This document shows positions 1 through 64,000 of a stretch of DNA of 64,000 bases, piece after piece. Source of the stretch: Candidatus Baldrarchaeota archaeon (GTDB lineage: Archaea > Asgardarchaeota > Baldrarchaeia > Baldrarchaeales > DXJG01). Position numbers and translations under genes: made by a program. Where the stretch lies: contig DXJG01000002.1 in the NCBI GenBank assembly GCA_019056805.1, positions 480,515-544,514 of the forward strand, read 5' to 3'. The number at the start of each line of letters is the position of its first letter. The first letter of the stretch is position 1. The notes beneath the pieces were generated by a model. That model searched no databases, was not told where the DNA came from, and saw only the letters and a list, made by a program, of their open reading frames with translations.

Positions 1-665
1 ACTACGCAGCAAGGATGATTCTTCCACAGTTCGCCACTTCTCACAAGATAATATCCGATATTTTTGGTAACTGCATCTGCACAAAATGGTTCCCACGCTA
101 CAAATCCATCAATGTCACCACCACTAAGCATTAACTCCATATTTGAAGGTCCAAATCCTCTAGTGATTGTAACATCCTTCTCAGTAAGATTAGCCTTTTC
201 TAATGCTAATAGTAATAAGAAATGTTGGACAGTTCCGTATCCAGGTATCGCAATATTCTTACCAGCTAGATCCTGTAGGCTATTAATCTGGGAATTTTTA
301 CCAACAATTATAGCACTACCATTAACGTTCACAGCAGAAATTACCGTTATGTTAATATCTGCGTTAATTCTTTTAATTAATGCAGGTGCAATGCCTAAAT
401 ATCCTATATCGATTTCACCAGCTTTGAACCCATCCATTTCAGCCATTCCATTTTGATATACACGAGTAACTATCTTTAATCCCTCTTCCTCAAACCACCC
501 CTTCTCTAAAGCAACAAACAAAGCTAAATGATGTAAATCCGCCTCCAAAAAACCTATTGTAATTGTTGGCTCCACTAGGTAGACGCTATACACGTAGTAA
601 CCCGTAAGAGAAACACCAAAAACAATAATAAGAATTATTATTGCTTTAGCTTTAGTTAATTCCAA
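1..665 (-). CDS. ABC transporter substrate-binding protein (NMT1/SsuA/TauA-like), 3' end runs off window
   Basis: The minus-strand reading frame is open from a TTG start at about 665 down to position 1, with GGGTGA about 6 nt upstream. It reads LELTKAKAIIILIIVFGVSLTGYY (signal/anchor) then EPTITIGFLEADLHHLALFVALEKGWFEEEGLKIV...DGFKAGEIDIGYLGIAPAL...IPGYGTVQHFLLL. This periplasmic-binding-protein pattern matches the aliphatic sulfonate/nitrate/thiamine-precursor binders. It is absent from the ORF track because no stop lies inside the window. Confidence 0.55.
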   Translation of the reverse strand, partial: MELTKAKAIIILIIVFGVSLTGYYVYSVYLVEPTITIGFLEADLHHLALFVALEKGWFEEEGLKIVTRVYQNGMAEMDGFKAGEIDIGYLGIAPALIKRINADINITVISAVNVNGSAIIVGKNSQINSLQDLAGKNIAIPGYGTVQHFLLLLALEKANLTEKDVTITRGFGPSNMELMLSGGDIDGFVAWEPFCADAVTKNIGYYLVRSGELWKNHPCCV

Positions 666-1010
666 TATAAGTCACCCAAGAAATTATATAATACCTAAAT
701 ATAAATTTCACTTTTAGGAAAAAAATATACCACAAAAAGGAAAAATTATTAATGTTATTTCCTTTTTAGGTTAAATATTATCACCATTGGTAACTAACAA
801 TGTTTATTATTCGATTTTGAAGAAATGCCAAAAATAACTTAAAATTGAAAGAGTGATATTATGCAGTATTTCTTCTGTCAATCTACTTCATTTTTAGCTT
901 GTTAGATTAATTATTAATTCTAACAGTTTATTTTATTTAATTAAATTAAAAATTAATGGTAATCGTTAAATTTAATTGAAGATAGGCGTAGTTTTCTTGG
1001 AGGTAAAAGC

Positions 1011-1502
1011 TTGACATGGGACTATGAGAGGATTAGAAACAAACTCCTTGAAGCAAGAGAACACTTAGTTAAGGCGCTTCAAAAACTTAAATCATCAAGG
1101 AACTGGTCTTTTCTAGACATGTTTCTTGGGAGAGGTCTCAGCCTCTTTGCCGATTTTATGGAACATGAAAAGTATGGCGAAGCGGTGGAGGAAATAAGAC
1201 GAGCAAAACATATAATATCTCAAGTTCAAGAACACATCGGCGATGTGGATTTAGAGGTGGATGACAGTTTATTCGGTACTTTTCTCGATATAGCCTTCGA
1301 TAATATTTTCATAGATTTTCTGAGACATGGAAGAATTAATAAGGCAAGAAAAAAGGTCATAGAAGTTATAAGGAAAATAGACAATGTATTGGCAACATTA
1401 AAACCCCCTAAAATCGTAGAAGAAGAAAGGTTTTGCTCCACTTGCGGAGCAAGTATACCAACTAGTTCAAAATTTTGTCCATACTGTGGAGCAAAACAAT
1501 AG
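1011..1502 (+). CDS. hypothetical protein with C-terminal double zinc ribbon
   Basis: A TTG start lies 8 nt after GGAGGT. The C-terminus reads CSTCGASIPTSSKFCPYCGAKQ, a CxxC-x10-CxxC ribbon. Confidence 0.5.
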   Translation: MTWDYERIRNKLLEAREHLVKALQKLKSSRNWSFLDMFLGRGLSLFADFMEHEKYGEAVEEIRRAKHIISQVQEHIGDVDLEVDDSLFGTFLDIAFDNIFIDFLRHGRINKARKKVIEVIRKIDNVLATLKPPKIVEEERFCSTCGASIPTSSKFCPYCGAKQ

Positions 1503-1623
1503 GATAGCATTGCAACAACTTTAAAATCTTTTCAACATTTTCCAAATACATATCCCTGCTTAGTGTTTAAACTATCTTAGATTAATTTGAATAATAAATC
1601 TGAATTTATGAATTTACTGAAGG

Positions 1624-3759: not shown

Positions 3760-3777
3760 AAACAATTTAAGCCAAAT

Positions 3778-4410
3778 TCAAAGTTTTTCCATAACCTTTT
3801 TTACAAGTTCTCTCACAGCTTTTCTCCCGCCTAAAAACAAAGCTAATTCTGCAAGTCTTTCTACATGTCTTTCTAAGACAGGCATTATTATATCTTTTGA
3901 TTGAGTATCTAAGCTTGTTACGAGGTCTATTAATTCGCTTAAGGTATCAAAAACGCTTCTAAACATGTCATAAACATACATAGGAGCGTCTGAAACTCTT
4001 CTCTTCGCAATTAGATTCCCAACATTATAGTAAACTTCTTTAACAACAATTTCAGGAGAAGCACCATTTCCAAGTTTGTTGAGACCGTTCTTTAGGATTT
4101 CCTCTACGGTATTTTGCATTTGCCAAATCTGTTCATTGCTTTTACTTTTGCTCTCAAAAAATACCGCTAACGCATAGTGTTCAACTTCTTTTGTTTTTCC
4201 AAAGAAAATACATGCTATCATACCTAAATCTGGAAAAAGAGTTTGTACACAACCTTCAGCTTCGCTCAAATCTTTTGCACCACTGCTTACCCAAACATCC
4301 AAAGCCATATTCCAAAGTTTCTCTCGAGGGATAAATCCCTCGGGAAACATAGCCTCCGCTATAGGTCCCAGTTTATAATCAAACTTAATAAGAAGTACAC
4401 CTTTGAGCAT
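3778..4410 (-). CDS. longin-like domain protein (family member 1 of 3 in window)
   Basis: The N-terminus MLKGVLLIKFDYKLGPIAEAMFPEGF fits a profilin/longin-like alpha-beta pattern, followed by a helical C-terminal half. It lies 18 nt downstream of the KaiC-like gene on the same strand. It is a paralog of 6189-6839 and 8613-9089. Confidence 0.55.
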   Translation of the reverse strand: MLKGVLLIKFDYKLGPIAEAMFPEGFIPREKLWNMALDVWVSSGAKDLSEAEGCVQTLFPDLGMIACIFFGKTKEVEHYALAVFFESKSKSNEQIWQMQNTVEEILKNGLNKLGNGASPEIVVKEVYYNVGNLIAKRRVSDAPMYVYDMFRSVFDTLSELIDLVTSLDTQSKDIIMPVLERHVERLAELALFLGGRKAVRELVKKVMEKL

Positions 4411-4428
4411 TTATAAGCCACACACCAA

Positions 4429-5835: not shown

Positions 5836-6188
5836 AGATAGTCACCCTTATTCTTGGAAATAAACCGTTTAATTATTTTTTCTTTTAGTTTTATAAAGTC
5901 TTAAATATTTATTGTATTGATAGATTTTAAATTTTCGGTATTTACACCTAACTTCGTAATTTAGACCGTTTAAAGACGAATGACGACTTAAAAACCAGAT
6001 AACCTTCAATGTTTACAAATAATATAATTTCACTTAGCTGGGATTTTAAAAAAGCTAATTCTTCCTTTACAAAGTGTTAGAGGCTTATAGTAAAATTAAT
6101 ATTGGGTTGAAATTAAATGTAGTATCATGTATAATAACATTGTACTTAAAAATCGAGGGGGTTCAAAAGACGTCGTGAGGGAGCTTTC

Positions 6189-6839
6189 GTGTTAAAAGGA
6201 GTCTTACTAGTTCGATTCGATTCAAAACTTGGACCAATACCAGAAGGAATGTTTCCACAAGACTTCATAGACAGAAATAAGATTCCAGAGATAACCATGC
6301 AAATCTGGGCTAATCTTCCTAAAGCTGGTGGCAACGGCTACACCCTAGTTAACTTCAACAAAATAAATTTGTTTGGTTTTCTTCTTTACGATGAAGATGG
6401 CAATCTAGGACCGTACTGTATAGCAAGTTTTTTTGATTCTGATGCTGTGGCCGAAATATGGGGGAGATTTGAAGATATTAAAAAACTAATGGAAATTATA
6501 AATAACAAAATTAAAGAAAAACTACCTGTTCAGGTCGCGTTACAGGAACTCTATGAAAATATCATGAAGATTATTACAAGGCCTATCATAAGTGGAGTTT
6601 TAAAAGACAATGTTTATTCTACTTTTAAAGAGGTTTTTGAAAACTTAGCTTATTTAATATCAACTATAAAAAACATAAAAGATGAAGATATTAAGAAAAA
6701 AATGATCGAGAAAGTAAAAAACTTGTCCGAAAACCTGTTAACATTATCAATATTATGGGGTGGAAGAGAAATAGCAACTCTTCTAATAAAACGGTTATTG
6801 TCATCAACTACTACTCCTAAGGAAAAACTAAAATTTTAA
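6189..6839 (+). CDS. longin-like domain protein (family member 2)
   Basis: A GTG start follows GAGGGAG. The N-terminus MLKGVLLVRFDSKLGPIPEGMFPQDF is near-identical to that of 3778-4410. It is divergently oriented from the KaiC operon. Confidence 0.55.
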   Translation: MLKGVLLVRFDSKLGPIPEGMFPQDFIDRNKIPEITMQIWANLPKAGGNGYTLVNFNKINLFGFLLYDEDGNLGPYCIASFFDSDAVAEIWGRFEDIKKLMEIINNKIKEKLPVQVALQELYENIMKIITRPIISGVLKDNVYSTFKEVFENLAYLISTIKNIKDEDIKKKMIEKVKNLSENLLTLSILWGGREIATLLIKRLLSSTTTPKEKLKF

Positions 6840-6862
6840 CTAGGTTTTAATTTAGTTAATTA

Positions 6863-6926
6863 TTGGCGATGATGAGACTCGCATCGGCCGATGAAATGAG
6901 GTTAACGGTGGGCTTGCTGAGTCTCC
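6863..6926 (+). ncRNA. candidate archaeal C/D box sRNA (2'-O-methylation guide)
   Basis: It is a GC-rich island in AT-rich intergenic DNA. A C box ATGATGA sits at 6869-6875, followed by a 12-nt guide and a degenerate D' box CCGA. A C'-like GATGAAATGA element follows, and the D box CTGA sits at 6917-6920. Orientation is set by the C and D boxes. Confidence 0.35.
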
Positions 6927-6983
6927 ATATTTAAATGTAGACAATCTTTTTAGGCGTTTTCAATTCGATATGAAAGTTTTGCT

Positions 6984-7481: not shown

Positions 7482-7575
7482 TCACCTTTAACCATATATT
7501 TAAATGCAAGCTTAAGATTTCTAATAACCCATACGTATGATAAGGATTTGGATCAGTATCTTGGGGTCGAATTAA

Positions 7576-8451: not shown

Positions 8452-8612
8452 TAGTAGTGAAAAATTATTTAGGTAACCTTTTCATATTTTTTTAATAGAG
8501 CGATTTAAATTAGCTACATAGTTAGTCTAAAAACACAAACTTTATAACTAATATTGTAGTAACAAATACTGCTACTAAAGAATACCTAAATCTAGAAGTA
8601 ATATTTCTTGAC

Positions 8613-9089
8613 ATGATACCTGTTTCGTTTCATAATGATGTGAAGGGATATGTTATGAAAATCAAAGGAAATTATAACAGCAAACTAAAGGGCATTGTTT
8701 TAGGACGTTTATTACCAACCTTACCAAGTCCGCATTTCATATATCCTAACGATTTTTTAAATACTAAAGAGCTCAGGTACGTTATTATGCAGGCATGGTT
8801 AAACTATGGTAGCACAACATGGACGGATAAACCTGAATTTGTATTTGTACACTATAACTGGCTTAAAATGATAGGATGCGCATACTTTGATAAATCAAAT
8901 CATCTTGGAGAATATACACTTATTTGCATGTTTGATGAAAATGAAGGCGTAAAAGTTTGGAAGTATCTTCCGAAAATTAAAGAGTTCTTGGAAAAGGCTA
9001 GCCAAAAAATACGACACGAACAGAACATGGTCACAATAATAAAAAACTTATACAGGGAACTTTCAGAGAAAATATCACAATTAGAATAA
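8613..9089 (+). CDS. longin-like domain protein (family member 3); true start probably ATG at 8655
   Basis: LKGIVLGRLLPTLPSPHFIYPNDF...W..G...IGCAYFDK...YTLICMFDE...W aligns position-by-position with LKGVLLIKFDYKLGPIAEAMFPEGF...W..G...IACIFFGK...YALAVFFES...W of 3778-4410. It lies immediately upstream of the TrmB-GTPase pair. Confidence 0.45.
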   Translation: MIPVSFHNDVKGYVMKIKGNYNSKLKGIVLGRLLPTLPSPHFIYPNDFLNTKELRYVIMQAWLNYGSTTWTDKPEFVFVHYNWLKMIGCAYFDKSNHLGEYTLICMFDENEGVKVWKYLPKIKEFLEKASQKIRHEQNMVTIIKNLYRELSEKISQLE

Positions 9090-9223
9090 TTTTATTAAAT
9101 GATAAAGCGGTAAGTAAAGTATATTTTAGATTGCTAGTTTTGACAAAACGTTTTCATGTAGTAACATTTATTATTACCATTGTACTAATTTATAGATATA
9201 CTCTATTACAAATAATATGTGGG

Positions 9224-20660: not shown

Positions 20661-20755
20661 TCCTATACGATCTTGTTAAATAAGATTGCAAAAGAAATAT
20701 TATTTTAAATTTGGTTGGATTGTTTGATTAATGATTAAACTTGTTGGTGAATTTT

Positions 20756-22429
20756 ATGAATCTTAAAATCTTAAGAAGCCGAAACGTGACAGAGGGAGTG
20801 GATCGCGCCCCTCATAGATCGCTTTTTAAGGCGTTAGGTCTTACAGATGAAGATTTATCTAAACCTCTTATAGCTGTAGCTAATTCGTGGAATGAAATAG
20901 TACCCGGACATGTACATTTAGAAAAAATCGCAGAAGCAGTTAAAAGGGGTATAAGAACTGCCGGCGGAACACCTTTTGAATTTAATACAATAGCAATATG
21001 TGATGGCATAGCTATGGGACATGAAGGTATGAGAACGCCTCTTCCAAGCAGAGAAATAATAGCTGCATCAATAGAATTAATGATTCAAGCACACATGTTT
21101 GATGCCATGGTACTAATTGCATCCTGCGATAAAATAGTACCTGGAATGCTTATGGCCGCCTGCCGCCTAGATATCCCGTCAATAATGATCACTGGTGGGT
21201 GTATGTTACCCGGTGTATATAAGGGCAAGGAAATAGCACTAAGCCAAGTTTTTGAAGCAGTGGCAAAAGTTAAATCAGGTGAAATGAGTGAAGAAGATCT
21301 TAAACTTTTGGAAGAATCTGCATGTCCAGGACCTGGATCTTGTGCAGGCATGTACACTGCTAATACAATGGCATGCCTTGTTGAAGCCCTTGGTATGTCA
21401 TTACCAGGGTGTGGTGCGTGTCCCGCTGTCTATGCAGAAAAACTCCGTATTGCCGAAGAAAGCGGTAAACAAATTATAAAATTACTAGAAAGGGAAATTA
21501 CCCCTTCAAAAATAATCACTGAAGAGTCTATGGAAAATGCGATTCGTGTTGATATGGCTTTAGGTGGATCAACTAATACAATTTTACATTTAACCGCAGT
21601 TGCACATGAACTTGGAATAAATTTAACACTAGAAAAGTTTGATGAATTGGGACGAAGTACGCCTCACATATGTAATATGAATCCTTCTGGTCCACATTAC
21701 CTAAAAGACCTTTACCTTGCGGGCGGGGTTCCTGCTGTTATGAAAGAATTGAAACCACTATTAAATCTTAATACTTTAACAGTAACTGGGAAAACGTTAA
21801 AGGAAAACCTAAAAAGCGTTCATGTCTTAAATAGAGAAGTTATTCGACCATTAAACAACCCATATCATAAAGAAGGCGGAATTGCTATTCTATTCGGCTC
21901 GCTCGCACCAGAAGGCGCTGTAGTAAAACAATCTGCAATCGACCCAACTATGCAGAAATTCGAAGGAGAAGCTAGAGTTTTTGACAAAGAAGAGGATGCA
22001 GTAAATGCCATACTTAATAATGAGATAGAAAAAGGACAGATTATTGTTATAAGATATGAAGGACCCAAAGGTGGACCAGGAATGCGTGAAATGCTTTCTG
22101 CAACCTCCGCATTAGTTGGTGCTGGCTTAGATAAAAGTGTAGCACTTATTACGGATGGAAGATTTTCTGGAGCAACTAGAGGACCAGCAATAGGCCACGT
22201 TTCACCAGAAGCAATGGATGGAGGTCCAATAGCCATCGTGGAAGATGGAGATATTATCTCGATAAATATACCTGAGAGAAAATTGGACTTAAAGATCTCT
22301 GAAGACATTGTTAAGGAAAGATCTTCAAAATGGAAACCACCAGAACCAAGAGTGAAAAAAGGGTACCTCTATTTATATTCAAAAATAACAGAATCAGCAA
22401 GCAAAGGAGCAATTTGGAAAAAACTCTAA
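20756..22429 (+). CDS. ilvD: dihydroxy-acid dehydratase
   Basis: An N-terminal [12 protein letters not shown] motif and the Fe-S loop [12 protein letters not shown]. Confidence 0.9.
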
Positions 22430-22625: not shown

Positions 22626-24029
22626 TTGAACATTAGCTGGGGAAATATTGCAAAGAAAATTTCAGAGATTGTAGGGGAAGAAAATATTACCACATCACTA
22701 GTAGACCTAATAACTTATTCCTCAGATGCATCAATTGATTCAGGAATGCCAAATCTCGTAGTATGGCCAACCACACCAGAACAGATCTCAAAAATAGTGA
22801 AACTAGCTAATGAGTATCATTTTCCCATAATTCCTCGAGGGGCAGGCACAGGTTTAAGTGGTGGAGCAGTTCCCAAATATGGTGGAGTTATTTTAGATTT
22901 ATCACGTATGAATAAAATACTCGAAATAAGTACACAAGATCTTCAAGTCCTTGTAGAAGCTGGAGTTGTAGCAGATGACTTAAATCAAGAACTTGCAAAA
23001 CATGGATTATTTTTCCCACCAGATCCTGCAAGTAGTAGTGCAGCCACAATAGGCGGTATGTTGGCAGAAAATGCAGGAGGAATTCGAGCAGTCAAATATG
23101 GTACTACAAGAGAGTGGGTACTTGGTTTAGAGGTCGTTTTACCGACAGGCGAAGTGCTATGGGTTGGGCGGAGGGCAATGAAGTGGGTTGCCGGATACGA
23201 TCTTGTAAGATTATTTATTGGAAGTGAAGGAACACTAGGAATCATTACAAAAGCTTTGCTAAAGGTTAGACCACTCCCAGAAACCGCATTGTCAGCTTTT
23301 GCAATGTTTAGCAGCCTAGAACAAGCAGTTCATTGCGTATACAAAATTATTATAGAGGGACTAGAACCCTCAAAGGTTGAATTTCTTGACCAAATAACAC
23401 TAGATGCTATTAGCAAATATACTGGAACAAGTTTTCCTCCTGGAGAGGCTGCCATTATAATAGAACTTGATGGTGAAAAATTAAGCGTCGAAAAAAGGCT
23501 CGAAAGACTAATTGAAATATTTAAAGAAGAAAAAGCATTAAGCTATGATGTTGCTAGGACACCCGAAGAAAATATGAGAATATGGCAGGCTAGAAAGGCA
23601 GCTCTTCCGGCATTATCATCAGTAAAACCAACCGTAGTTATAGAAGACGTTACCGTACCCATTAGTAAACTCCCATATATGGTAAAAGTTGTTCAAGAAA
23701 TTTCCAAGAAATTTAATATTCCCGTAGCTACCTTTGGCCACGTAGGTGATGGCAATTTTCACCCATGTATTCTGTTAGATATTAGAAATCGCGATGAAGT
23801 TGAAAGAATGGAAAAATGTGCATTAGAAATTGCTAAGGCTGCAATAAAAGTTGGAGGTACAGTGAGCGGTGAACATGGAATTGGAACATTAAAAATGAAC
23901 ATGTACAGACATGAAGCACCAACAGAACTAGTAAAATTGCTGTTAAAAATAAAGAGAGCGCTGGATCCCAATAACATTATGAACCCCGGAAAAATCTTCC
24001 CCAAAGAATATTTGGAGGGAAATGCATGA
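22626..24029 (+). CDS. FAD-linked oxidase (GlcD / D-lactate dehydrogenase-like)
   Basis: The FAD-binding PCMH domain contains IIPRGAGTGLSGGAVP. A TTG start. Confidence 0.8.
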   Translation: MNISWGNIAKKISEIVGEENITTSLVDLITYSSDASIDSGMPNLVVWPTTPEQISKIVKLANEYHFPIIPRGAGTGLSGGAVPKYGGVILDLSRMNKILEISTQDLQVLVEAGVVADDLNQELAKHGLFFPPDPASSSAATIGGMLAENAGGIRAVKYGTTREWVLGLEVVLPTGEVLWVGRRAMKWVAGYDLVRLFIGSEGTLGIITKALLKVRPLPETALSAFAMFSSLEQAVHCVYKIIIEGLEPSKVEFLDQITLDAISKYTGTSFPPGEAAIIIELDGEKLSVEKRLERLIEIFKEEKALSYDVARTPEENMRIWQARKAALPALSSVKPTVVIEDVTVPISKLPYMVKVVQEISKKFNIPVATFGHVGDGNFHPCILLDIRNRDEVERMEKCALEIAKAAIKVGGTVSGEHGIGTLKMNMYRHEAPTELVKLLLKIKRALDPNNIMNPGKIFPKEYLEGNA

Positions 24030-25150
24030 AATTGCTTCCAGATGACTTTGAAACACAGTTGATTAAATGTTCTGAATGTGGATTTTGCAGGCCAGCTTGT
24101 CCAACTCTCGCAGTCAAGATGACTGAGTCTTGGGGTGCTCGAGGAAGGAACATGATTATAAAAGCTGTAATTGATGGGCGTCTCAAAGTTGATGAAGAAG
24201 TTTTGAAAAGACTTTACAGTTGCGCACTCTGTAAAGCGTGCGAAGTTGTATGTCCATCTAAAGTTAAAGTTGTGGACATAATGGAGATAGTGAGAAGCAA
24301 ACTTACAGAATTAGAACTAGCCCCCTTAAAAGAACATAAAGAAATGATAGATACCATGTTTACCACTGGAAATATTTTTGGAGAATCGTTAGAATTTGAA
24401 AAAACCATTATATCATCTCCAGTTGAAACTTTGCTATTTCCTGGCTGCATGGCTGTAGTAAAAAATCCTGAAATAAAAGATGCTTGCATTAAGCTTCTCG
24501 AAAAGGCGGGAATAAACTTCACAGTTTTCGAGGATAAAAATCTATGTTGCAGCGGTTATGCGAAAATGCTTGGTGTCGAAAAGAAATTTGAGGAATATGT
24601 AGCTAAACAAGCAGAAAAAATATTTTCTCTCGGCATCAAGCAGATTGTTACCCCATGTCCCCTATGTTATACAACCCTTAAAGAAGATTATCCTTTTGAC
24701 GGCAAAATCAAGGTTATACATTTATCGGAACTATTAAGCGACCTACTAAAAAGTGCAAAAATAAATTTTACAAGAAAAGTCGACTCTGTTGTTGTTTTCA
24801 AAGATCCATGCCATCTAGGAAGATGGGAACAGATTTACGATCCGCCAAGATATGTTCTTTCTCAAATTCCCGGAATAAAAATAATTGAATTTACAAAAAA
24901 CCGCGAAAATGCTCAATGCTGCGGTGGAACAATAAGAATACCCTTTATGGACATGCGAACAGAAATGAGCAACAAATTAATAGAAGACGCTGAAAATCTA
25001 GGGGCTGATCTAATAGTTACATCATGTCCATCATGCTTCTTCAACATAAGTTCATCAGCATACTTCTCAGATGTAAAAGTTGTCGATCTCAGCATTTTAG
25101 CAGCATATGCCGCAGAACTGATAGACGAACTGATAATTGGAGGAGAATAG
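24026..25150 (+). CDS. Fe-S oxidoreductase, GlcF-like (2x[4Fe-4S] + two CCG domains)
   Basis: The cluster motifs are CSECGFCRPACP and CALCKACEVVCP. The CCG motifs are CPLCY and SCPSCF. The start overlaps the GlcD-like stop. Confidence 0.8.
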   Translation: MKLLPDDFETQLIKCSECGFCRPACPTLAVKMTESWGARGRNMIIKAVIDGRLKVDEEVLKRLYSCALCKACEVVCPSKVKVVDIMEIVRSKLTELELAPLKEHKEMIDTMFTTGNIFGESLEFEKTIISSPVETLLFPGCMAVVKNPEIKDACIKLLEKAGINFTVFEDKNLCCSGYAKMLGVEKKFEEYVAKQAEKIFSLGIKQIVTPCPLCYTTLKEDYPFDGKIKVIHLSELLSDLLKSAKINFTRKVDSVVVFKDPCHLGRWEQIYDPPRYVLSQIPGIKIIEFTKNRENAQCCGGTIRIPFMDMRTEMSNKLIEDAENLGADLIVTSCPSCFFNISSSAYFSDVKVVDLSILAAYAAELIDELIIGGE

Positions 25151-28332: not shown

Positions 28333-29175
28333 ATGATGATCAAAATGAATACATCGCTCCAAAAAAAGCTACTTAAAATACTCGAAGAATTAGGATTTAC
28401 GCAAAATGAAGCCAAAATATACTTAGTTCTATTTTTCTCCGGCGCCCCGCTAAATGCATCCGAAATATCAAATTATTCAAATGTCCCCCGTCCCAATGTT
28501 TATGAAACAATAAATAAACTCATAGAAAAGGGTTTTGTTTTAAAAGAGGCCTCTAGTAGAGGAGGACGATATGTAGCTATTATACCTCAAGAAATGCTAG
28601 ATATGCTACGTAAAAGATATGAACAACGCCTAAAACTAATCGATGAAACAATATTACAGTTTAAGGAAATGCTTAACAGGAGTTTAGGTGAATCTAAACT
28701 CTCAGCCATGAGTACAATAGAATTTATTAACGATGAAGAAAAAATCACTAGAATTATTGGAGAGGTCCTTGAATCTGCTCAATCCAAACTAATTACAATC
28801 ATCACCCCCGATGTCTTAGAGATCGAAGGGAAAAATATTGTTAGAATGCTTAGACGTTTGGCCAAAAGGAATGTGGATATTACCGTGGGAATAAAGACAA
28901 ATGATGATTATAAGTACTATGTTCGTGAACTATCAAAAATCTCTACTTTATATCTCTGGACTTATGGCGAATTACCACTTGGTTGCTATATTGCTGACGA
29001 TACTAACTGCTTAGTTACATTAGTTGGGAAATGGTCACCAATTGTATCCTATAATGTTGGTATTTTTACCGGAAATCCACTATACACAAAATCCTTCGGA
29101 TACTTCGCTCAAAAACTCCTAACATTGACGACACAAGAAATAGAGATAGTTAAAGAAATTCGTAGAAGAAGATAG
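28333..29175 (+). CDS. TrmB-family transcriptional regulator (paralog of 9224-10042)
   Basis: LGFTQNEAKIYLVLFFSGAPLNASEISNYSNVPRPNVYETINKLIEKGFV is the HTH. The C-terminal block GCYIADDTNCLVTLVGKWSPI is shared with the paralog. Confidence 0.7.
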   Translation: MMIKMNTSLQKKLLKILEELGFTQNEAKIYLVLFFSGAPLNASEISNYSNVPRPNVYETINKLIEKGFVLKEASSRGGRYVAIIPQEMLDMLRKRYEQRLKLIDETILQFKEMLNRSLGESKLSAMSTIEFINDEEKITRIIGEVLESAQSKLITIITPDVLEIEGKNIVRMLRRLAKRNVDITVGIKTNDDYKYYVRELSKISTLYLWTYGELPLGCYIADDTNCLVTLVGKWSPIVSYNVGIFTGNPLYTKSFGYFAQKLLTLTTQEIEIVKEIRRRR

Positions 29176-30257: not shown

Positions 30258-31331
30258 ATGGATGTAGAAGAAAGATTAAATTTGATTAAACGACCACCAA
30301 CAGAAGAAATAATAACAGAAGAGGAGTTAAGAGAGCTTCTAGAAACCACTACCCATCCTAAGCATTACATAGGATTTGAAATTTCCGGTTTATTACACTT
30401 AGGAACTTTAATAATATGTGGTTATAAGATAAATGACTTAGCAGAAGCTGGTGTTGACGTTACAGTTTATCTTGCAGATTGGCATAGTTTTATCAATAAA
30501 AAGCTAGGTGGAAACTGGGAAAACATTCTAAAGGCTGCAAAGTATTATGAGAAAGCTTTTAAATTCTTTTGTCCCAAAGCAAAAATTGTTCTTGGATCAG
30601 AATTATATCATCATAACGATGAGTATTGGAAAGATGTTATAAGATTCTCTTCGCATATAACGTTGGCCAGGAATGTACGTTGCCTAACAATAATGGGAAG
30701 AAGTGAAAAGGAAAAATTAAATTTTGCGCAATATATTTACCCGCCCATGCAAGCTGTGGATATAAAATATCTGGGTGAAGATATACCACATGGTGGGATG
30801 GATCAAAGAAAGGTTCATGTTTTAGCAAGAGAAGTATTTCCAAAACTTGGTTGGAAAAAACCCGTAGCACTTCATCATCATTTGTTAATGGGTTTGGCAG
30901 GACCACCGAGAATAAAAACTAAGGATAAATTAGAGAAAGTAATTGCAATGAAAATGAGTAAAAGCAAACCATGGACATGTATATTTATTCATGACTCTGA
31001 AGAACAAATAAAGAAAAAACTATTAAAAGCATGGTGTCCCGAGAGGCAGGTTGAATTCAACCCTGTATTAGAATTGGTTAAATACATAATTTTTCACGAA
31101 AAAAAGGAGTTCTTAGTTGAGAGGGAAAGTAAACATGGCGGAGATATAGTTTTTTCTTCTTATGAAGAGTTGGAAAAAGAATACATTAAAGGGAATCTCC
31201 ATCCTTTAGATTTGAAACTATCTGTCGCGCGAGAAATCTCAAATATACTAGATCCCATCAGGAAGTATTTTGAAAGACCATCAAATAGGAAATTGTTAAA
31301 CGTTTTTAAAGAAGTTAAAATTATAAGATAG
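30258..31331 (+). CDS. tyrS: tyrosyl-tRNA synthetase (archaeal type), HIGH motif reads HLGT
   Basis: IGFEISGLLHLGTL, YPPMQAVDIKYLGEDIPHGGMDQRKVH and KMSKSKP are present, plus the anticodon-binding C-terminus. Confidence 0.8.
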   Translation: MDVEERLNLIKRPPTEEIITEEELRELLETTTHPKHYIGFEISGLLHLGTLIICGYKINDLAEAGVDVTVYLADWHSFINKKLGGNWENILKAAKYYEKAFKFFCPKAKIVLGSELYHHNDEYWKDVIRFSSHITLARNVRCLTIMGRSEKEKLNFAQYIYPPMQAVDIKYLGEDIPHGGMDQRKVHVLAREVFPKLGWKKPVALHHHLLMGLAGPPRIKTKDKLEKVIAMKMSKSKPWTCIFIHDSEEQIKKKLLKAWCPERQVEFNPVLELVKYIIFHEKKEFLVERESKHGGDIVFSSYEELEKEYIKGNLHPLDLKLSVAREISNILDPIRKYFERPSNRKLLNVFKEVKIIR

Positions 31332-38134: not shown

Positions 38135-38629
38135 ATGAGTGTAAAAAGATTTTTTGCAAAGCATGGTTTTATCACAAACGGTATGCGTGTTAATCTCATA
38201 GGAGAAAAATTTTATACATTAATGGTAGGTATAGCCGACCTACTTAAAGAGAACTTTGGAGAGAAGGGTGAGCAACTACTTATCGATCTTCTAAGAAAAT
38301 TTGGAGAAGAAGATGGAAAAAGATTAAAAGAAGAGCTAAAGCTCGGCAACGATATAAACGATGCCGCTGATGCATGGATTATTATGGGTAACATTTTCAA
38401 AGTCAAAATGTTTACCCGCAAAACTAGCGATAAGGAAATAGAGTTTTACCATCCAAATTGCCCTATGTGGAACTTTTTTAAATCCAAAGGAAAAATATAC
38501 TGCGAAACTCTATGCTTACCCTATGTTGAGTCAGTTGTTAAAGCCATTGCCCCAAATATCGATATGGAGATTGTTCATCCACCTACAATTGAACGTACCT
38601 GCGTCAAAAAACTAGTCGTCAAAAGTTAG
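38135..38629 (+). CDS. V4R-domain (Bet3/TRAPP-fold) protein
   Basis: NGMRVNLIGEKFYTLMVGIADLLKENFGEKGEQLLIDLLRKFGEEDGKRL fits the V4R N-terminal pattern. The conserved Cys cluster HPNCPMW...CETLC is in the C-terminal half. Confidence 0.4.
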   Translation: MSVKRFFAKHGFITNGMRVNLIGEKFYTLMVGIADLLKENFGEKGEQLLIDLLRKFGEEDGKRLKEELKLGNDINDAADAWIIMGNIFKVKMFTRKTSDKEIEFYHPNCPMWNFFKSKGKIYCETLCLPYVESVVKAIAPNIDMEIVHPPTIERTCVKKLVVKS

Positions 38630-39246: not shown

Positions 39247-39825
39247 TTACACTGACTGATATTTCCTGATTGCGTATATTAATAATTGTGCTAATTCCTG
39301 AAATGCTGGCTGTACATTTTCACCGGTTTTGGCGGAAGTCTCTATAAAAACTATCGGAACGTCAAATTTTTCCTCTAAATATCTTTTTAGTATTTGTCCT
39401 TCCTCGTTGCTGACCCAGTCACGGCTTGGATCTGGTGGTGTATCTATCTTAGGTCTAAGATCTATTTTATTTCCAACTAAAACTACTGGTACTTTTCCAG
39501 TATTTTTCACTAACTCTTCCATCCAAAAGACTGTATTCTTAAAGGTACTTCTTCTCATTACATCATAAACAAGTAATGCTCCACTTGTGCCTCTATAAAA
39601 GGATTCTCTTACTGCTTTGAAGTGTGGTTGTCCAGCTAAGTCCCATATTTGAAACTTAACCTGAACCTCATCAGATAACTTGATATCCATCACTGCAAAG
39701 TCAGCACCAATAGTCATTATATATGCACTGTCGAAACCTTCGCCCATAAATTTTCGTCTAAGTGCCGTTTTTCCGACACCACCATCGCCAATTAAGACAA
39801 CTTTGAAAAGATAACTGTTTTTCAT
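39247..39825 (-). CDS. Ras/Rab-like small GTPase (tandem copy A)
   Basis: GDGGVGKTA, TIGADF, WDLAGQPHF, GNKIDL and ETSAKTG motifs. GGAGG precedes the ATG. Confidence 0.8.
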   Translation of the reverse strand: MKNSYLFKVVLIGDGGVGKTALRRKFMGEGFDSAYIMTIGADFAVMDIKLSDEVQVKFQIWDLAGQPHFKAVRESFYRGTSGALLVYDVMRRSTFKNTVFWMEELVKNTGKVPVVLVGNKIDLRPKIDTPPDPSRDWVSNEEGQILKRYLEEKFDVPIVFIETSAKTGENVQPAFQELAQLLIYAIRKYQSV

Positions 39826-40010: not shown

Positions 40011-40568
40011 TCATTCTTTAGACATATTTAAAATCAAATCAGCAAGTGTTATGAACGCAGTATTCACATTTTCCCCAGTTTTTGCAGAAGTTTCTATAAA
40101 ATGCACCTTAACTCCAAACTTTTCCTCTATAATCTGTTTTTTCTTAAGGCCTTCCTCAGTAGTAATATGGTTTCCACCTGGAACACGCAAATCTATCTTA
40201 TTACCAACCAAAACTATAGGCACTTTCGTTCCTGCATTCTCAAGAAGTTCAGTTACCCAAAGCTCAACATGATCATAAGTTTCCCTTCTAGTCACATCAT
40301 ATACCAGAAGAGCACCTCGCGATCCTCTGTAGAATCCCTCTCTTACTGCTTTGAAGTGTGGTTGTCCAGCTAAGTCCCATATTTGAAACTTAACCTGAGT
40401 CCCGTCAGATGTCTCAACATTTTTTACAGCAAAGTCAGCACCAATAGTAACTAAATATGATGCTGTAAAACCTTCGCCCATAAAACGTCGTCTCAAGGTT
40501 GTTTTTCCGACACCGCCATCGCCAATTAACACAATCTTAAAGAGATAGACCATCGCACTCAACCTCAA
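40011..40568 (-). CDS. Ras/Rab-like small GTPase (tandem copy B; start possibly MVYLFKIV at 40553)
   Basis: The same G1-G5 set as copy A. It shares a roughly 60-nt identical block with copy A. Confidence 0.8.
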   Translation of the reverse strand: MRLSAMVYLFKIVLIGDGGVGKTTLRRRFMGEGFTASYLVTIGADFAVKNVETSDGTQVKFQIWDLAGQPHFKAVREGFYRGSRGALLVYDVTRRETYDHVELWVTELLENAGTKVPIVLVGNKIDLRVPGGNHITTEEGLKKKQIIEEKFGVKVHFIETSAKTGENVNTAFITLADLILNMSKE

Positions 40569-40894: not shown

Positions 40895-42007
40895 ATGTCA
40901 CTTGTAGAAGGCGGCGAAGTTAAGAAAATTACAGATTATGATAAGCTCATAGAATATTTTGGCGTATCCAGAATAGATCCTATTTTAGATAGATTTAAAG
41001 ATCCTCATAGACTTTTAAGACGAAAAATAGTCTTTGCACATAGAGACTTTGACAAAATACTAGATGAAGTTGATAAAGGCAACATTTTCGCCGTTTTAAG
41101 CGGACGAGGCCCATCAGATAAAATACATTTAGGTCATCTAATTCTCTTCGAACTTAATCTCTATCTTCAAAAAAAGATGGGTGCCAATGTTTATATCCCT
41201 TTATCTGACGATGAAAAATACGTTTTCAAAAAAGTAGAGAGCTTAGAAAAAGCAAAATATTTTGCCTTAGACAACGCCTTAGATATCGTAGCTCTTGGTT
41301 ACGATCCTAACAAGACAGAACTTTTTATTTCTACGGAACTTCCATGGGTATATAAAACTGCAATAAAACTATCACGACACTTAACATATAGTACTGTAAA
41401 GGCTGTTTTCGGATTCAAAGGAGAAAATAACCCAGGAGAAATCTTCTATTCATGCCTTCAAATGGCGCACATACTTTATCCCATCTTGGTACATAAATTA
41501 CCCACCGTGGTTCCAGTTGCTATTGATCAAGATCCTTACATAAGAATTAGTAGAGATGTAGCGGATAAAATTAGAGTATTTAAACCCGCTGGTCTATATC
41601 TTAAGTATCTCAAAGGGTTAACCGGAGAGCCCATGAGTGCAAGTCAACCAGAAACATGTATATTCGCAACAGACAGTCCTGAAGAAGCAAGGAAAAAAAT
41701 CTGGGAGGCATTTACAGGAGGTCAACCAACAATTAAGGAACAGCGAGAGAAAGGCGGAAACCCGGATATATGCGTAGTTTATGAAATGTTAAACGTATAC
41801 TTTGTTGAAGATGACAAAGAAATGGAGAAACTGAGAAACGATTGTATTAGCGGAAATATTCTATGTGGTGAGTGTAAACAAAAATTAACAAATTATGTAA
41901 TTAATTTCCTAGAAAAACACAAAAAGGCAAGAGAAAAATACAGATACAAACTAAAAGACTTCTTCATACATGAAATAGATGAAGATATACTGGCGAAGAT
42001 TCCATAA
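40895..42007 (+). CDS. trpS: tryptophanyl-tRNA synthetase (archaeal/eukaryotic type)
   Basis: SGRGPSDKIHLGHL (HIGH) and GEPMSASQP (KMSAS) are present. Confidence 0.85.
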   Translation: MSLVEGGEVKKITDYDKLIEYFGVSRIDPILDRFKDPHRLLRRKIVFAHRDFDKILDEVDKGNIFAVLSGRGPSDKIHLGHLILFELNLYLQKKMGANVYIPLSDDEKYVFKKVESLEKAKYFALDNALDIVALGYDPNKTELFISTELPWVYKTAIKLSRHLTYSTVKAVFGFKGENNPGEIFYSCLQMAHILYPILVHKLPTVVPVAIDQDPYIRISRDVADKIRVFKPAGLYLKYLKGLTGEPMSASQPETCIFATDSPEEARKKIWEAFTGGQPTIKEQREKGGNPDICVVYEMLNVYFVEDDKEMEKLRNDCISGNILCGECKQKLTNYVINFLEKHKKAREKYRYKLKDFFIHEIDEDILAKIP

Positions 42008-48491: not shown

Positions 48492-48806
48492 GTGAACAAT
48501 ATGGCTAAGAAGATCACCCTAAGTGATAAAATGTTTAAAGAGTTAATTGATAGATTTAAAGAAAAGAAAGGATTTCTAGGCGTTATATTATCCACAAACG
48601 ACGGTCTACCGGTGAAATCCACCTTAGATACAGATATAACTGAAGAATTCACCGCCAGAATGGCATACCTTCTCGGTAAATTAGACAAATTTGCAAAGAA
48701 ACTTGATGGCACACAGGTTGTCGGATTAACCGTTGAAACAGAAAACACAGAAATTATTCTTATAAGAGAAGATACAACCTTTATGAGCGTTTTACTCGCA
48801 AAATAA
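48492..48806 (+). CDS. Roadblock/LC7 (MglB-like) domain protein
   Basis: KGFLGVILSTNDGLPVKS ... VVGLTVETENTEIILIR is the roadblock alpha-beta-beta pattern. Confidence 0.6.
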   Translation: MNNMAKKITLSDKMFKELIDRFKEKKGFLGVILSTNDGLPVKSTLDTDITEEFTARMAYLLGKLDKFAKKLDGTQVVGLTVETENTEIILIREDTTFMSVLLAK

Positions 48807-60486: not shown

Positions 60487-61470
60487 GTGGAAATTAAAGA
60501 ACTGGTATATGAAGGAGTAAAACTAGTTTTTGATCCACCTAAATTAAAAACATCAATCGAAGAATTGTTGCTTCAAGTAGGGGGCATTCTTAGCGAAGCA
60601 GTGGTAGTTCTTAAGGGAGGAGATGGAGAAGCATACTACCCAAGTGTGGTTTCATTTCAAAGTGAAAAACTAAGAGAATTGGGACTAAAAATGGTAAATC
60701 TGCTAAAAGATGTAGATATAGAGGTGAAAGGACTCATATATGTTCATTATGATGAATATCTAGCGGAAGAATGTGGGACAGTTGAAACAAGTGGCAAAAA
60801 GCCTGAAGGATTTATATGTCCTCTAAATGAAATGTACGAAGAACAATTCCTAAAAATACTTGAAGAAATATCACAAATAAACATTGAAAACCTAATTTTT
60901 GCATTAACTGGGTATGCAAGCGGTTCGTATTGTTTCTGTGAAAAATGCAAAGCAACATTCGCCATGGATAGAAGGATGCCCAAAGACTTTAATCTCACTA
61001 CTTTACAAGGAGAAAAAGAACTATATAATGAGTGGATAGAATGGAGGAGTAACAACATTGAAATATTTCTCTCAAAAGCAGTTGAAAAAGCAAAAGAACT
61101 AAACATAAATCCCGTCTTTGCTATTGAATTTGATCCTATACTTCGCTTCGAAGAAGGTCTAAAGGAATCTTTGGGTATAGATGTAAAAAAGGTTGCGAAT
61201 CTTTTCAACCATTTTATAATTATGGTAAATCCATGGGAAGTACTATTACCAAGGATGGGAAGCAAAGGTTTCAATGAATTAGTTCAAAGAATCAAAAAAT
61301 TAAGACGTGAAGTGAACAAAAAACTTTCACTCATGTACTGGCCACCCAACGAAGAAGAACTAAAAACACTTGTACAGTTAAAAGAAGAAACAAACAGCGA
61401 GAATTTATATGTTTTCCTTCAATACCCAGAACAATTCAAAAATTGGAGAGAAATAAGAACTATAACATAA
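60487..61470 (+). CDS. hypothetical protein
   Basis: A 327-aa ORF with a GTG start and a Cys cluster CFCEKCK. No family was recognised. Confidence 0.45.
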   Translation: MEIKELVYEGVKLVFDPPKLKTSIEELLLQVGGILSEAVVVLKGGDGEAYYPSVVSFQSEKLRELGLKMVNLLKDVDIEVKGLIYVHYDEYLAEECGTVETSGKKPEGFICPLNEMYEEQFLKILEEISQINIENLIFALTGYASGSYCFCEKCKATFAMDRRMPKDFNLTTLQGEKELYNEWIEWRSNNIEIFLSKAVEKAKELNINPVFAIEFDPILRFEEGLKESLGIDVKKVANLFNHFIIMVNPWEVLLPRMGSKGFNELVQRIKKLRREVNKKLSLMYWPPNEEELKTLVQLKEETNSENLYVFLQYPEQFKNWREIRTIT

Positions 61471-61492
61471 CAGCATAACAGTAATCCTCATT

Positions 61493-62080: not shown

Positions 62081-62404
62081 ATGTCAATTGAGAACATCGC
62101 AAAACAACTAGAAGCTGAAGTAGATAACCTAGTAATAATGGACGAATCAGGTAATATACTAACAAGTAAAGGATCTCTTACTCTCGATCCCGATATAATA
62201 TCAACGATCGAAAATAAAGAACCTTCAGTAACACTTCAGGGAACAAAATATATCACCCTAACCGTGGAAGAAGACAGATATATAGCTTTAAACATACCAC
62301 AACAAGAATACTTCGCAGGAATTAAAGTAGAAGACAAATGGATTTTCTTCACCACAAAGGAGGATCCCAAAAACATAATAAACAAAATATGGAAATCCAT
62401 CTAA
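62081..62404 (+). CDS. profilin-like small protein (profilin/roadblock fold)
   Basis: LVIMDESGNILTSKG, DPDIISTIENK and VTLQGTKYITLTVEEDRYI parallel profilin's AAIVGHDGSVWAQS, KPEEITGIM and LGGTKYMVIQGEPGAVI blocks. There is a C-terminal helix. Confidence 0.4.
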   Translation: MSIENIAKQLEAEVDNLVIMDESGNILTSKGSLTLDPDIISTIENKEPSVTLQGTKYITLTVEEDRYIALNIPQQEYFAGIKVEDKWIFFTTKEDPKNIINKIWKSI

Positions 62405-62645
62405 CCCTCTTTTTCTATTAACTAAACAAAATAGCCCGACAAAACTTTAGATTGTACGAACCCCTAATTAACCTTCTTTTCACAGAAACAAAAATCCCTT
62501 AGTTGTATTTTGTAAAAAGAAAGATATATAAAATATAAAAGCAACAAAAATAAAACCAAAAATCAAATTAGCAAAATAATAATCAGATTCTTTTAGTGCA
62601 GTATCAAATCGGTCTGGAAGCTGATTGGTGGAGGGGATTATTTAC

Positions 62646-63374
62646 ATGTTGAATGAGAAGGTTAGAACTGGAATTAATGGTCTTGACGAGTTGCTCGGAG
62701 GTGGAATACCAAAGGGATCAACAGTTCTTATTACAGGGGAAGCAGGAACAGGGAAAACAACTCTAGCAGTGCAATATATAGTAAATGGAATAAAAATGTT
62801 CAATGAAAAAGGTCTCATAGTAGTAGCTGGAGAAGATGTCGAAACATTACAAAAATTTATGCTACAATTTGGATGGGATTTAAGACAATTTGAAAAGGAA
62901 GGAAAACTCGTATTGATAGATTTGACAAGCGTAAAAATTGGGATACCAGCGGATGTGAGATTCACAGAGTTTCAGCTTACAACAACCGACATAAAACAAC
63001 TGATATCGACAATATATAGGGCAGTAAAGCAAAATAATATAAAAAGAGTAGTAATAGACTCTGTACCCAATTTAGTTACGGAAACAAGTAGTGTAGAAGA
63101 TTTAAGAACTGCATTATTAATGCTATGTACCCTACTGGGAAGAATTGGCTGTACAACGTTGATAACAACGGAGATACCTGAGGGAGCAGAAAAATTAAGC
63201 ACATATGGAATGGAGGAATTCGTAGCATCAGGAATAATAAAATTGATGTTTAAAAAAGAAGGAAATAGATGGATAAGAAAAATACAAGTAAGAAAAATGA
63301 GAGGAACAAAACACAAATTAGAGGAACATGTATTTGAAATAGGAAAAGAAGGAATAAAAATATCAAACAAGTAA
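62646..63374 (+). CDS. single-domain KaiC/RadB-like RecA-fold ATPase
   Basis: GINGLDELLGGGIPKGSTVLITGEAGTGKTTLAVQY is the Walker A, and VVIDSV is Walker B. Confidence 0.7.
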   Translation: MLNEKVRTGINGLDELLGGGIPKGSTVLITGEAGTGKTTLAVQYIVNGIKMFNEKGLIVVAGEDVETLQKFMLQFGWDLRQFEKEGKLVLIDLTSVKIGIPADVRFTEFQLTTTDIKQLISTIYRAVKQNNIKRVVIDSVPNLVTETSSVEDLRTALLMLCTLLGRIGCTTLITTEIPEGAEKLSTYGMEEFVASGIIKLMFKKEGNRWIRKIQVRKMRGTKHKLEEHVFEIGKEGIKISNK

Positions 63375-63573
63375 CCTAAAATATTGAACTTTATTTTTAT
63401 CTATAAAATGAAATCTAAGATGCAAACTTCATAATAACGCATTAAAATTCTCTATTTTAGTTATAGGGGTAGAAGAAAAACGAAACAAAAATAGTAATAT
63501 TTATAACTACAAATAAGAATATTCCTTCTAACAAGATTTATGGCTATTCCATGTAGAATTTAGGTGTTTAACT

Positions 63574-64000
63574 TTGGGAATATTTGACGAGTTATATTTT
63601 TGGCTTGAAAGTCTCATATCTATCAATCCTTGGATATCTGCTACATTAATAGGATTTTTCAGTTCATTTGGAGTCTTCTTTTCCTTCGCACCCTCAATTG
63701 TACTATTCATAATTCTTTTTGCGCAGGGATACAACCCCTTATTCATTTCCATATGTGCAGGATTTGGATCTATGATGGGAGAATTGGCAAGCTACTACCT
63801 AGGCTACGTTGGTAAAAAAACCATAGATATTGCTTCAAACAAATTTTCCACAGACATAGAACTTTCACCGAAAATGAAAGACTTCTTCGCATGGCTAGAT
63901 AAAGTACTTTACACCATGGGAGAAGAAACGGTCTTCATATTTTCATTAACTCCTCTACCAGATGATCTACTTCTCATCTATTTAGGAGCCAAAAAATACC
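63574..64000 (+). CDS. DedA/VTT-domain-like membrane protein, 3' end beyond window
   Basis: An open TTG-initiated frame not in the ORF track (no stop). It reads LGIFDELYFWLESLISINPWISATLIGFF...GFGSMMGELASYYLGYVGKK...FSLTPLPDDLLLIYLGAKKY. Confidence 0.4.
   Translation, partial: MGIFDELYFWLESLISINPWISATLIGFFSSFGVFFSFAPSIVLFIILFAQGYNPLFISICAGFGSMMGELASYYLGYVGKKTIDIASNKFSTDIELSPKMKDFFAWLDKVLYTMGEETVFIFSLTPLPDDLLLIYLGAKKY

Follow-up and report, generated by a model that had tools for sequence, protein, structure and literature searches.

The question raised by this locus is whether a 64,000-nucleotide stretch of archaeal DNA that holds several genes for eukaryotic signature proteins (ESPs) is special as a whole or in any of its parts. 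The stretch, called the window hereafter, covers positions 480,515 to 544,514 of contig DXJG01000002.1 from a Candidatus Baldrarchaeota assembly (GCA_019056805.1). An earlier reading made from the letters and their open reading frames (ORFs), referred to as the sequence-only reading, had described a window-wide density of Asgard-type ESPs in an AT-rich, thermophile-like gene set. According to our analysis, the window is very probably unremarkable chromosomal DNA from a thermophilic Asgard archaeon (class Baldrarchaeia), in which eight ESP genes are scattered over four loci.

ORFs were chosen in six frames, and ~70 of them were scanned against Pfam at E≤0.01; a subset of small ORFs that were Pfam orphans or only weakly assigned was re-scanned at E≤10. 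The corrected gene map contains ~67 genes that cover 85% of the sequence, and the GC content is 32-38% across the whole window. The majority are ordinary archaeal housekeeping or metabolic genes, and the ESP-type genes are interleaved with them, as the sequence-only reading had stated. Neither tRNA genes nor Rfam families were found within the window, and the tRNA, Rfam and Pfam scans detected no ribosomal protein or rRNA genes in it. The trafficking and cytoskeleton ESP genes number 8 of the 67: three for small GTPases, three for longins, one for a roadblock protein and one for a profilin. Their coordinates are collected in Table 1.

All three small GTPases that had been claimed were confirmed by the Pfam Ras profile (PF00071, cut-off 21.6 bits), of which they cover positions 1-160 of 162, and by the motifs G1-G5. 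Each protein carries GD(L/G)xVGKT, TIGAD, WD(I/L)AG, GNKIDL and ETSAK, corresponding to G1, switch I, G3, G4 and G5. The MMR_HSR1 scores of the three reached 21-27 bits only. When GTPases 1 and 3 were compared with the PDB, the best 60 matches were all Rab/Ypt/Sec4-type proteins or Thorarchaeota Rab, at 129-151 bits. GTPase 1 was closest to Rab2B and Rab8A (~150 bits; Thorarchaeota Rab, 136 bits), and GTPase 3 to the Thorarchaeota Rab 7ezb (150 bits), followed by Rab14, Rab8A and Rab1; the best solved eukaryotic relatives of the two are Rab2, Rab8, Rab14, Rab1 and Rab11. Both Pfam and, for the two proteins queried, the PDB ranking placed the GTPases with the Rab-like members of the Ras superfamily and not with MglA or Era, the placement that the sequence-only reading had named as one that would tell against it. 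GTPases 2 and 3 are tandem paralogues with 64% identity in BLASTP. The C-terminal Cys that forms the prenylation motif of eukaryotic Rabs is present in none of the three tails, and Asgard Rab-like proteins have been reported to be devoid of it. The catalytic Gln after DxxG is kept in GTPases 2 and 3 (DLAGQ). In GTPase 1 the position is occupied by His (WDIAGHE), as it is in three Baldrarchaeia orthologues. Judged from its sequence, GTPase 1 appears to be unusually constrained and probably needs a partner for hydrolysis.

The three members of one longin-like family were also found as described, by BLASTP paralogy and by the longin fold in the model of one paralogue. Longin B is 29% identical to longin A (E=2e-28) and longin C 22% (E=2e-10). 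The ORF of longin C opens at 8613; counted from the ATG at 8655 the protein has 144 aa, which is also the length of the cluster representative. For this family, no match was obtained in Pfam (E≤10), in NCBIfam or by direct sequence comparison with the PDB. An exhaustive profile search of 1.84 billion representatives returned only 23 relatives, and those that carry a taxonomic label come from Baldrarchaeia and Asgardarchaeia. Only P23 and F85 are conserved family-wide. The orthologues of longin A in Baldrarchaeia metagenome-assembled genomes (MAGs) show 63-68% identity. GTPase 1 was estimated by eye to be ~93-95% identical in Baldrarchaeia contigs where longin A is only 63-65% identical.

In the AlphaFold2 model of longin A (pLDDT 81, pTM 0.65), the N-terminal domain contains a five-stranded sheet in the order bbabbbaa, with strands and helices at E2-11, E15-22, H29-42, E53-59, E64-72, E78-86, H89-97 and H99-114. 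The top Foldseek match in the PDB was the longin domain of a Lokiarchaeota Roadblock-Longin protein, 8yqg (E=1.8e-5), with a target-normalised TM-score of 0.68 and a root mean square deviation (rmsd) of 3.3 Å over 144 columns. Sequence identity to longin A is 12%. In the Loki protein the longin is fused to a roadblock domain; the window longins stand alone with a helical extension. Later matches included NPRL2/3 of GATOR1 (E=3e-3 to 2.5e-2), FLCN/FNIP2, Lst4, the SEA complex, SMCR8-C9orf72 and DENND1A. A 26-sequence profile of the family gave a weak match to residues 9-68 of human NPRL2 (E=0.003, 20 bits), in which the N terminus of NPRL2 aligns with the family at the strand 1-2 motif F-D-x-x-L-G-P...F-P-x-x-F. 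On the strength of the model, this unannotated "hypothetical" family is predicted to consist of NPRL2-type longins, an assignment that is added by the present analysis. NPRL2-like longins are abundant in Asgard archaea (Liu et al. 2021).

It is very unlikely that the family instead represents a small-molecule-binding alpha/beta sandwich of the GAF, PAS or LasR type that resembles a longin superficially. Foldseek did also return, with E=6e-4 to 0.1, the ligand-binding domains of LasR and SdiA, several GAF domains and LOV kinases. However, these matches have low TM-scores or rmsd values of 15-21 Å and are driven by the C-terminal helices, whereas the two best matches, and the majority of the compact-domain matches, are longins (8yqg, NPRL2/3, Lst4, FLCN/FNIP2, SMCR8 and DENND1A). 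The order bbabbbaa is that of a longin, and the weak match of the sequence profile to the longin domain of NPRL2 was obtained independently.

The single roadblock protein that had been claimed was identified as a short, eukaryote-like form. In the PDB it matched 7f8f_A (E=2.5e-9) and the dynein light chains roadblock (DYNLRB1/LC7; E=1e-8 to 1e-6), and its cluster mates are listed at NCBI as "roadblock/LC7 domain-containing protein". A longer ORF that covers the gene on the other strand, 48482-48820(-), is spurious and of low complexity, and gene calling by the longest ORF fails there. A different ORF, 42935-43294(-) with its gene at 42935-43270(-), was considered as a roadblock protein and rejected: a central helix is missing from its AlphaFold2 model (pLDDT 77), for which Foldseek returned only weak matches, Sm/Hfq-like ones and Pelota, but no roadblock.

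The one profilin-like protein was recovered as well, by a phmmer match to PDB 5zza chain P (E=2.1e-7). The similarity extends over 84 residues (1-84), and the two proteins have 107 (window) and 121 aa. Chain P was deposited as "Uncharacterized protein". The entry is reportedly the Odinarchaeota profilin bound to rabbit actin (Akil & Robinson 2018). Its sister entry 5zzb has been cited as Loki profilin-1 (PMC8410842). The match to 7pbh, "Profilin", was weak (E=0.08), and Pfam Profilin (PF00235) did not match at E≤10; judged from sequence similarity, the protein is a putative profilin. No actin gene was found within the window.

Both KaiC-family ATPases of the inventory scored above the Pfam KaiC cut-off (PF06745, 26.6 bits) and contain Walker motifs; the two-domain protein also exceeded the cut-off of GvpD_P-loop. 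The two-domain ATPase has the Walker A motif GLAGTGKTT and the Walker B motif IVIDSLD in its first domain, and its second, KaiC-like domain is degenerate and has no P-loop. For the single-domain protein, relatives are called at 242 aa, which would put the start near 62646. KaiC-family ATPases adjoin two different members of the roadblock/longin/profilin fold group, at 62081-63374 of the window and in contig L090 (other contigs are cited by our L numbers). The adjacency of profilin and KaiC genes was seen only in near-identical contigs.

The V4R protein of the inventory was not confirmed. Pfam V4R (PF02830) or TRAPP matched no ORF at E≤0.01 and none of the re-scanned ORFs at E≤10. The only candidate, 38135-38629, and four homologues matched ATC_hydrolase alone, with 24-31 bits (cut-off 28.1), and none of the five matched V4R at E≤10. 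In the PDB, neither the single sequence of this protein nor a profile search found anything meaningful. C109, C123, C127 and C156 are invariant in six sequences, and the ATC hydrolase, V4R and HNOB domains are related and have a common Cys cluster (PMC5847659). By its sequence, the protein appears to be a relative of V4R and not a V4R or TRAPPC3-like protein. The C-terminal domains of both TrmB-like proteins were also tried as V4R; they had no Pfam match and look like ordinary TrmB-family C-terminal domains. A further ORF, 14048-14482, matched neither V4R nor roadblock, and its relatives carry PF27217 AF_0155.

The Asgard source proposed by the sequence-only reading was supported by protein labels and by gene order. 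Cluster mates at an identity of at least 90% bear the names Candidatus Baldrarchaeia or Baldrarchaeota in the clusters of GTPase 1, of the roadblock protein and of a 175-aa protein encoded at 16013-16540, and Baldrarchaeia lie inside the kingdom Promethearchaeati (Asgard archaea). Over ~20 kb around longin A, the gene order is identical in three other contigs, including the Baldrarchaeia MAG GCA_054385895.1. What counts against this placement is that it depends on how near-identical proteins are labeled and on synteny. IlvD, which had been put forward as a taxonomic marker, was uninformative. Among species-representative genomes its closest relatives come from an unclassified archaeon (62%), Methanolobus (58%) and Nitrospirota/Deltaproteobacteria (54-56%), and this taxonomic mixture suggests a transfer history for the gene.

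The mixed IlvD relatives, together with one older record among the roadblock cluster mates that carries an Odinarchaeota label, could be taken to mean that the sequence is not Asgard, i.e. that the contig is mis-binned or chimeric or that another archaeon acquired Ras-like GTPases. We consider this extremely improbable. Eight different ESP-type genes, including a profilin homologue, stand on a single contig, several Baldrarchaeia assemblies made independently from different samples have their genes in this order too, and the taxon labels agree across different proteins. Odinarchaeota, moreover, are an Asgard lineage too.

The description as a thermophile-like gene set held for thermophily, on the basis of composition and published inference, but not for the genes cited in its favor (Hsp20, DUF59 and ferredoxins), which are not diagnostic. 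IVYWREL residues make up a fraction of 0.437 of the encoded proteins, a measure that is inflated somewhat by the AT-rich genome and that converts to ~75 °C by the Zeldovich relation. The charged-minus-polar bias of the window proteins is 9.7%, and glutamine makes up 2.1% of the residues. In published work, Baldrarchaeia were predicted to be hyperthermophiles from genomic features, and a GDP-binding optimum of 64 °C was given for Baldrarchaeia EF-1A. The DUF59 and ferredoxin genes that had been named are both present by Pfam. The Hsp20 claim was true insofar as a distant homologue exists, which falls below both curated cut-offs: it scored 48 bits against the NCBIfam archaeal Hsp20 model (E=9.8e-13, full length; cut-off 140) and 15.7 bits against Pfam HSP20 (cut-off 20.8).

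Counted gene by gene, the eight ESP genes exceed the ~2.2 expected at an ESP fraction of 3.3%, with a Poisson P of ~0.002 if the genes are independent. The 3.3% background is reportedly a figure for Lokiarchaeum, a genome other than that of the window, and this weakens the comparison. Taken at face value, such an excess would speak for a true "ESP island", a supercluster, regulated or inherited together, with trafficking and cytoskeleton genes concentrated far above the average of the genome. We regard this as improbable. The density does not clearly exceed the Asgard background, because the genes are not independent: if tandem paralogues are counted as one, four loci remain (the longin/Rab cluster, the tandem of GTPase genes, roadblock and profilin), for which P is ~0.18. 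A density special for an Asgard genome was not upheld. The loci are 10-30 kb apart, with unrelated housekeeping genes on both strands between them, and the window was chosen for this very feature, which introduces a selection bias. The three GTPases compare with ~1.3 expected from the rate in MK-D1 (P ~0.13), whose genome has 74 small GTPases (PMC10933270). Most Asgard ESP genes were reported to lie outside conserved neighborhoods, and 505 ESP clusters of Asgard orthologous genes (asCOGs) were defined, 130 of them Roadblock/longin/profilin-superfamily families and 94 small-GTPase families (Liu et al. 2021). The ESP genes of the window occur in four separate loci because such genes are abundant in Asgard archaea, tend to be duplicated in tandem and are for the most part dispersed among unrelated genes.

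Compared with the ESPs already published for Asgard archaea (asCOG set of Liu et al. 2021; structures of Asgard Rab, roadblock and TRAPPC3 in Tran et al. 2024), the window contains the same classes, namely Rab-like GTPases without prenylation motif, short Roadblock/LC7 proteins, longins and profilin. In both, the genes lie dispersed between housekeeping genes, and paralogues have expanded within single lineages. There is no difference in kind; structures have been studied for proteins of Thor-, Loki- and Odinarchaeota, and the window is from Baldrarchaeia. The longin family of the window has no Pfam model and is annotated as hypothetical.

The cluster at 3778-10554 is the only organized piece of the window. 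The gene of the two-domain ATPase is followed by longin A 18 nt downstream, and longin B is divergent from the ATPase gene. Longin C, a TrmB-family regulator and GTPase 1 form one gene string on the same strand, in which the GTPase 1 gene overlaps the upstream TrmB-like gene by 4 nt; relatives of this regulator are called at 269 aa. Distant family members in other surroundings tell more than synteny within Baldrarchaeia does. In an Asgardarchaeia MAG with otherwise different neighbors, a longin-family member is found 1.5 kb from a full-length homologue of the two-domain ATPase (E=3e-52; 28.6% identical over 476 aa). Contig L090 has two KaiC-family genes directly before a longin-family member and a second member plus a Robl_LC7 gene after it; one of its KaiC genes, at the head of the gene string 2069-4850, is 49% identical to the single-domain ATPase of the window. 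In contig L096 a Rab-like GTPase precedes two longin-family members, and in L099 two members overlap head to tail. The family thus occurs as adjacent pairs in L090, L096 and L099 and in three copies in the window. A KaiC-family gene is nearby in 3 of 6 informative contexts, for which a rough estimate of the chance is ~5e-4 at an assumed gene background of 0.5%, and a Rab-like GTPase stands beside the family in two contexts. No description of a longin-KaiC link in Asgard archaea was found in the literature searched. The recurring neighborhood of the longin family with KaiC-family ATPases and Rab-like GTPases is a modest new lead.

By analogy with eukaryotic NPRL2-NPRL3, FLCN-FNIP and Mon1-Ccz1, the longin paralogues would pair as homo- or heterodimers. 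These dimers might then serve as a regulatory platform, in the role of GTPase-activating protein (GAP), guanine nucleotide exchange factor (GEF) or scaffold, for the neighboring Rab-like GTPase, and the KaiC-type ATPase might supply an ATP-dependent input to the longin/GTPase platform. The roadblock and profilin proteins would have their roles elsewhere, the former as a GTPase partner or scaffold and the latter as an actin regulator. A further-reaching interpretation, which we consider unlikely, is that NPRL2-like longin heterodimers, the GvpD/KaiC-like ATPase and the His-variant Rab-like GTPase constitute a conserved Asgard signaling module. Such a module would be a prokaryotic forerunner of the longin-based GAP/GEF complexes GATOR1 and FLCN-FNIP, wired to a KaiC-type hub and not to TOR.

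The likeness to NPRL2/NPRL3 (GATOR1) and FLCN/FNIP lies in the N-terminal longin fold, which is common to these proteins and the window family, in the occurrence of the genes as adjacent paralogue pairs, which recalls obligate longin heterodimers, and in the small GTPase genes that adjoin them. In contrast, the window longins have 144-216 aa with a helical tail or none, and they come without the C-terminal domain of NPRL2, without a DENN module and without a DEPDC5 partner. The neighboring GTPase is Rab-like and not Rag-like. A conserved arginine finger was not found in the longin family, and the association with a KaiC-type ATPase has no eukaryotic counterpart. The two-domain ATPase itself is comparable with haloarchaeal GvpD and archaeal KaiC-like ATPases in its N-terminal KaiC/RecA-type P-loop domain with Walker A and B motifs, in a match to the GvpD basic region 2 and in the second, degenerate KaiC-like domain. 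Unlike GvpD, it has no gas-vesicle genes nearby; its conserved neighbor is a longin-family gene.

Several observations speak against a functional module. In the window, HIT and BacA, two unrelated genes, separate longin B from longin C. The conserved order within Baldrarchaeia takes in housekeeping genes, and because these are conserved in order too, synteny in this class is weak functional evidence alone. On the side that is present, contigs L095 and L097, both cut at a contig end, show neither the ATPase nor the GTPase. The alignment of the longin family contains no arginine or candidate catalytic residue that is conserved throughout, and a GAP or GEF role of the longins would be drawn purely from analogy.

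Table 1. Features of the window and of GTPase 1 orthologues, with the supporting matches
Feature	Position	Strand	Evidence
Type IA DNA topoisomerase, 711 aa	1624..3759	+	Pfam Topoisom_bac 346 bits; NCBIfam DNA topoisomerase I 442 bits
Longin A, 210 aa, predicted NPRL2-like longin domain plus C-terminal helical bundle	3778..4410	-	AlphaFold2, Foldseek
GvpD/KaiC-like two-domain ATPase, 468 aa	4429..5835	-	GvpD_P-loop 50, KaiC 41, GvpD_bR2 34 bits
Longin B, 216 aa, divergent from ATPase gene	6189..6839	+	Family hidden Markov model 229 bits
Longin C, 144 aa, longin domain only	8655..9089	+	Family hidden Markov model 169 bits
TrmB-family winged-helix regulator, ~272 aa	9224..10042	+	Pfam TrmB 79 bits
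Rab-like GTPase 1, 171 aa	10039..10554	+	Pfam Ras 201 bits
GTPase 1 orthologues	L085 3689-4204; L086 3847-4362; L087 4005-4520		Baldrarchaeia contigs
2x[4Fe-4S] ferredoxin, 58 aa	13580..13756	-	Pfam Fer4 58 bits, two stretches
Dihydroxy-acid dehydratase IlvD	20741..22429	+	Pfam 466 + 270 bits, two domains
Fer4+CCG protein	24026..25150	+	Pfam
TrmB paralogue	28333..29175	+	Pfam TrmB 63 bits
Tyrosine-tRNA ligase (TyrRS), full length	30258..31331	+	NCBIfam NF006330 434 bits (cut-off 220)
Distant Hsp20/alpha-crystallin-like protein, 159 aa	33477..33956	+	NCBIfam, Pfam
DUF59 / FeS_assembly_P protein, 101 aa	35625..35930	-	Pfam 89.5 bits
ATC_hydrolase-family protein	38135..38629	+	Pfam 28.3 bits (cut-off 28.1)
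Rab-like GTPase 2, 192 aa, insertion after G4	39247..39825	-	Pfam Ras 152 bits
Rab-like GTPase 3, 185 aa, canonical DLAGQ G3	40011..40568	-	Pfam Ras 163 bits
Tryptophan-tRNA ligase (TrpRS)	40895..42007	+	TIGR00233 254 bits (cut-off 177)
Roadblock/LC7 protein, 101 aa, short eukaryote-like form	48501..48806	+	Pfam Robl_LC7 47 bits (cut-off 23)
Profilin-like protein, 107 aa, 220 nt upstream of KaiC gene	62081..62404	+	phmmer vs PDB
Single-domain KaiC-family ATPase	62625..63374	+	Pfam KaiC 236 bits; Walker A GEAGTGKTT

Besides the genes in Table 1, the window encodes an undecaprenyl-diphosphatase, a geranylgeranyl reductase, OsmC, a MoaB-like protein, ThyX and MobB, a glycerate kinase-like protein, a GlcD/GlcF-like oxidase pair and two PhoU-TrkA_C proteins. 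Further genes encode an ADP-forming acyl-CoA synthetase, a MoxR-VWA pair, an NADH oxidase-like flavoprotein, an M24 peptidase, a major facilitator superfamily (MFS) transporter, a lipoate ligase, a TldD/PmbA pair and an M42 peptidase. The type IA topoisomerase is not a reverse gyrase; the reverse gyrase model aligns to its topoisomerase part only.

The expectation that every small unknown ORF of the window is a candidate new signature protein did not hold for the one that was modeled. This 111-aa protein at 42935-43270(-) gave the weak Sm/Hfq-like similarity only (Foldseek, E ~0.007), and homologues were found only in close relatives (3). Its gene is the last of the MoxR-VWA string, after VWA at 43310-44623 and a MoxR-like AAA protein at 44652-45818. 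The ORF at 14048-14482 belongs to the AF_0155 family, named for an Archaeoglobus fulgidus protein. Two conserved proteins, at 16013-16540(-) (175 aa) and 60487-61470(+) (327 aa), had no match in Pfam, NCBIfam or the PDB; the former has a 30-member cluster at an identity of at least 90% across Baldrarchaeia MAGs.

Additional observations were made around the TyrRS gene. A stand-alone C-terminal half of TyrRS, from GGMDQR to KMSKS and the end, is encoded at 29197-29763(-). Its identity to residues 175-357 of the complete enzyme is 48%; the two genes lie head-to-head, and the 494 nt upstream of the fragment (29764-30257) are full of stops in all frames. From its sequence, the fragment resembles a paralogue that was truncated, or what is left of a displaced gene. 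On the other side, a 452-aa lysine- and isoleucine-rich protein is encoded at 31321-32679(-), which overlaps the end of the TyrRS gene by 11 nt. A LAGLIDADG_3 domain (26 bits) is present in this protein, whose N terminus looks AbrB/SpoVT-like by eye and whose C terminus looks winged helix-turn-helix-like. Its gene may be a domesticated or mobile one of the homing-endonuclease type and may be connected with the TyrRS duplication. The MFS transporter (161 bits) is part of a 617-aa fusion at 48989-50842(+) with a C-terminal PhoU_div/DUF47 domain (103 bits), and the two PhoU+TrkA_C genes stand in tandem at 26799-27994(-). Fusion and tandem pair suggest a phosphate- or ion-linked regulation of transport.

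As an inventory of ESPs, the main inference of the sequence-only reading is correct but already known for Asgard genomes. Little is added by the list, as Baldrarchaeia MAGs with these genes are public and some of the genes are already named. The useful products are the assignment of the window to a thermophilic Asgard class, the identification of a family of predicted NPRL2-type longins and the KaiC/Rab neighborhood in which this family was seen. If the longins, the ATPase and the GTPase do form a real complex, it would provide a tractable, thermostable system for the pre-eukaryotic regulation of small GTPases by longin domains.

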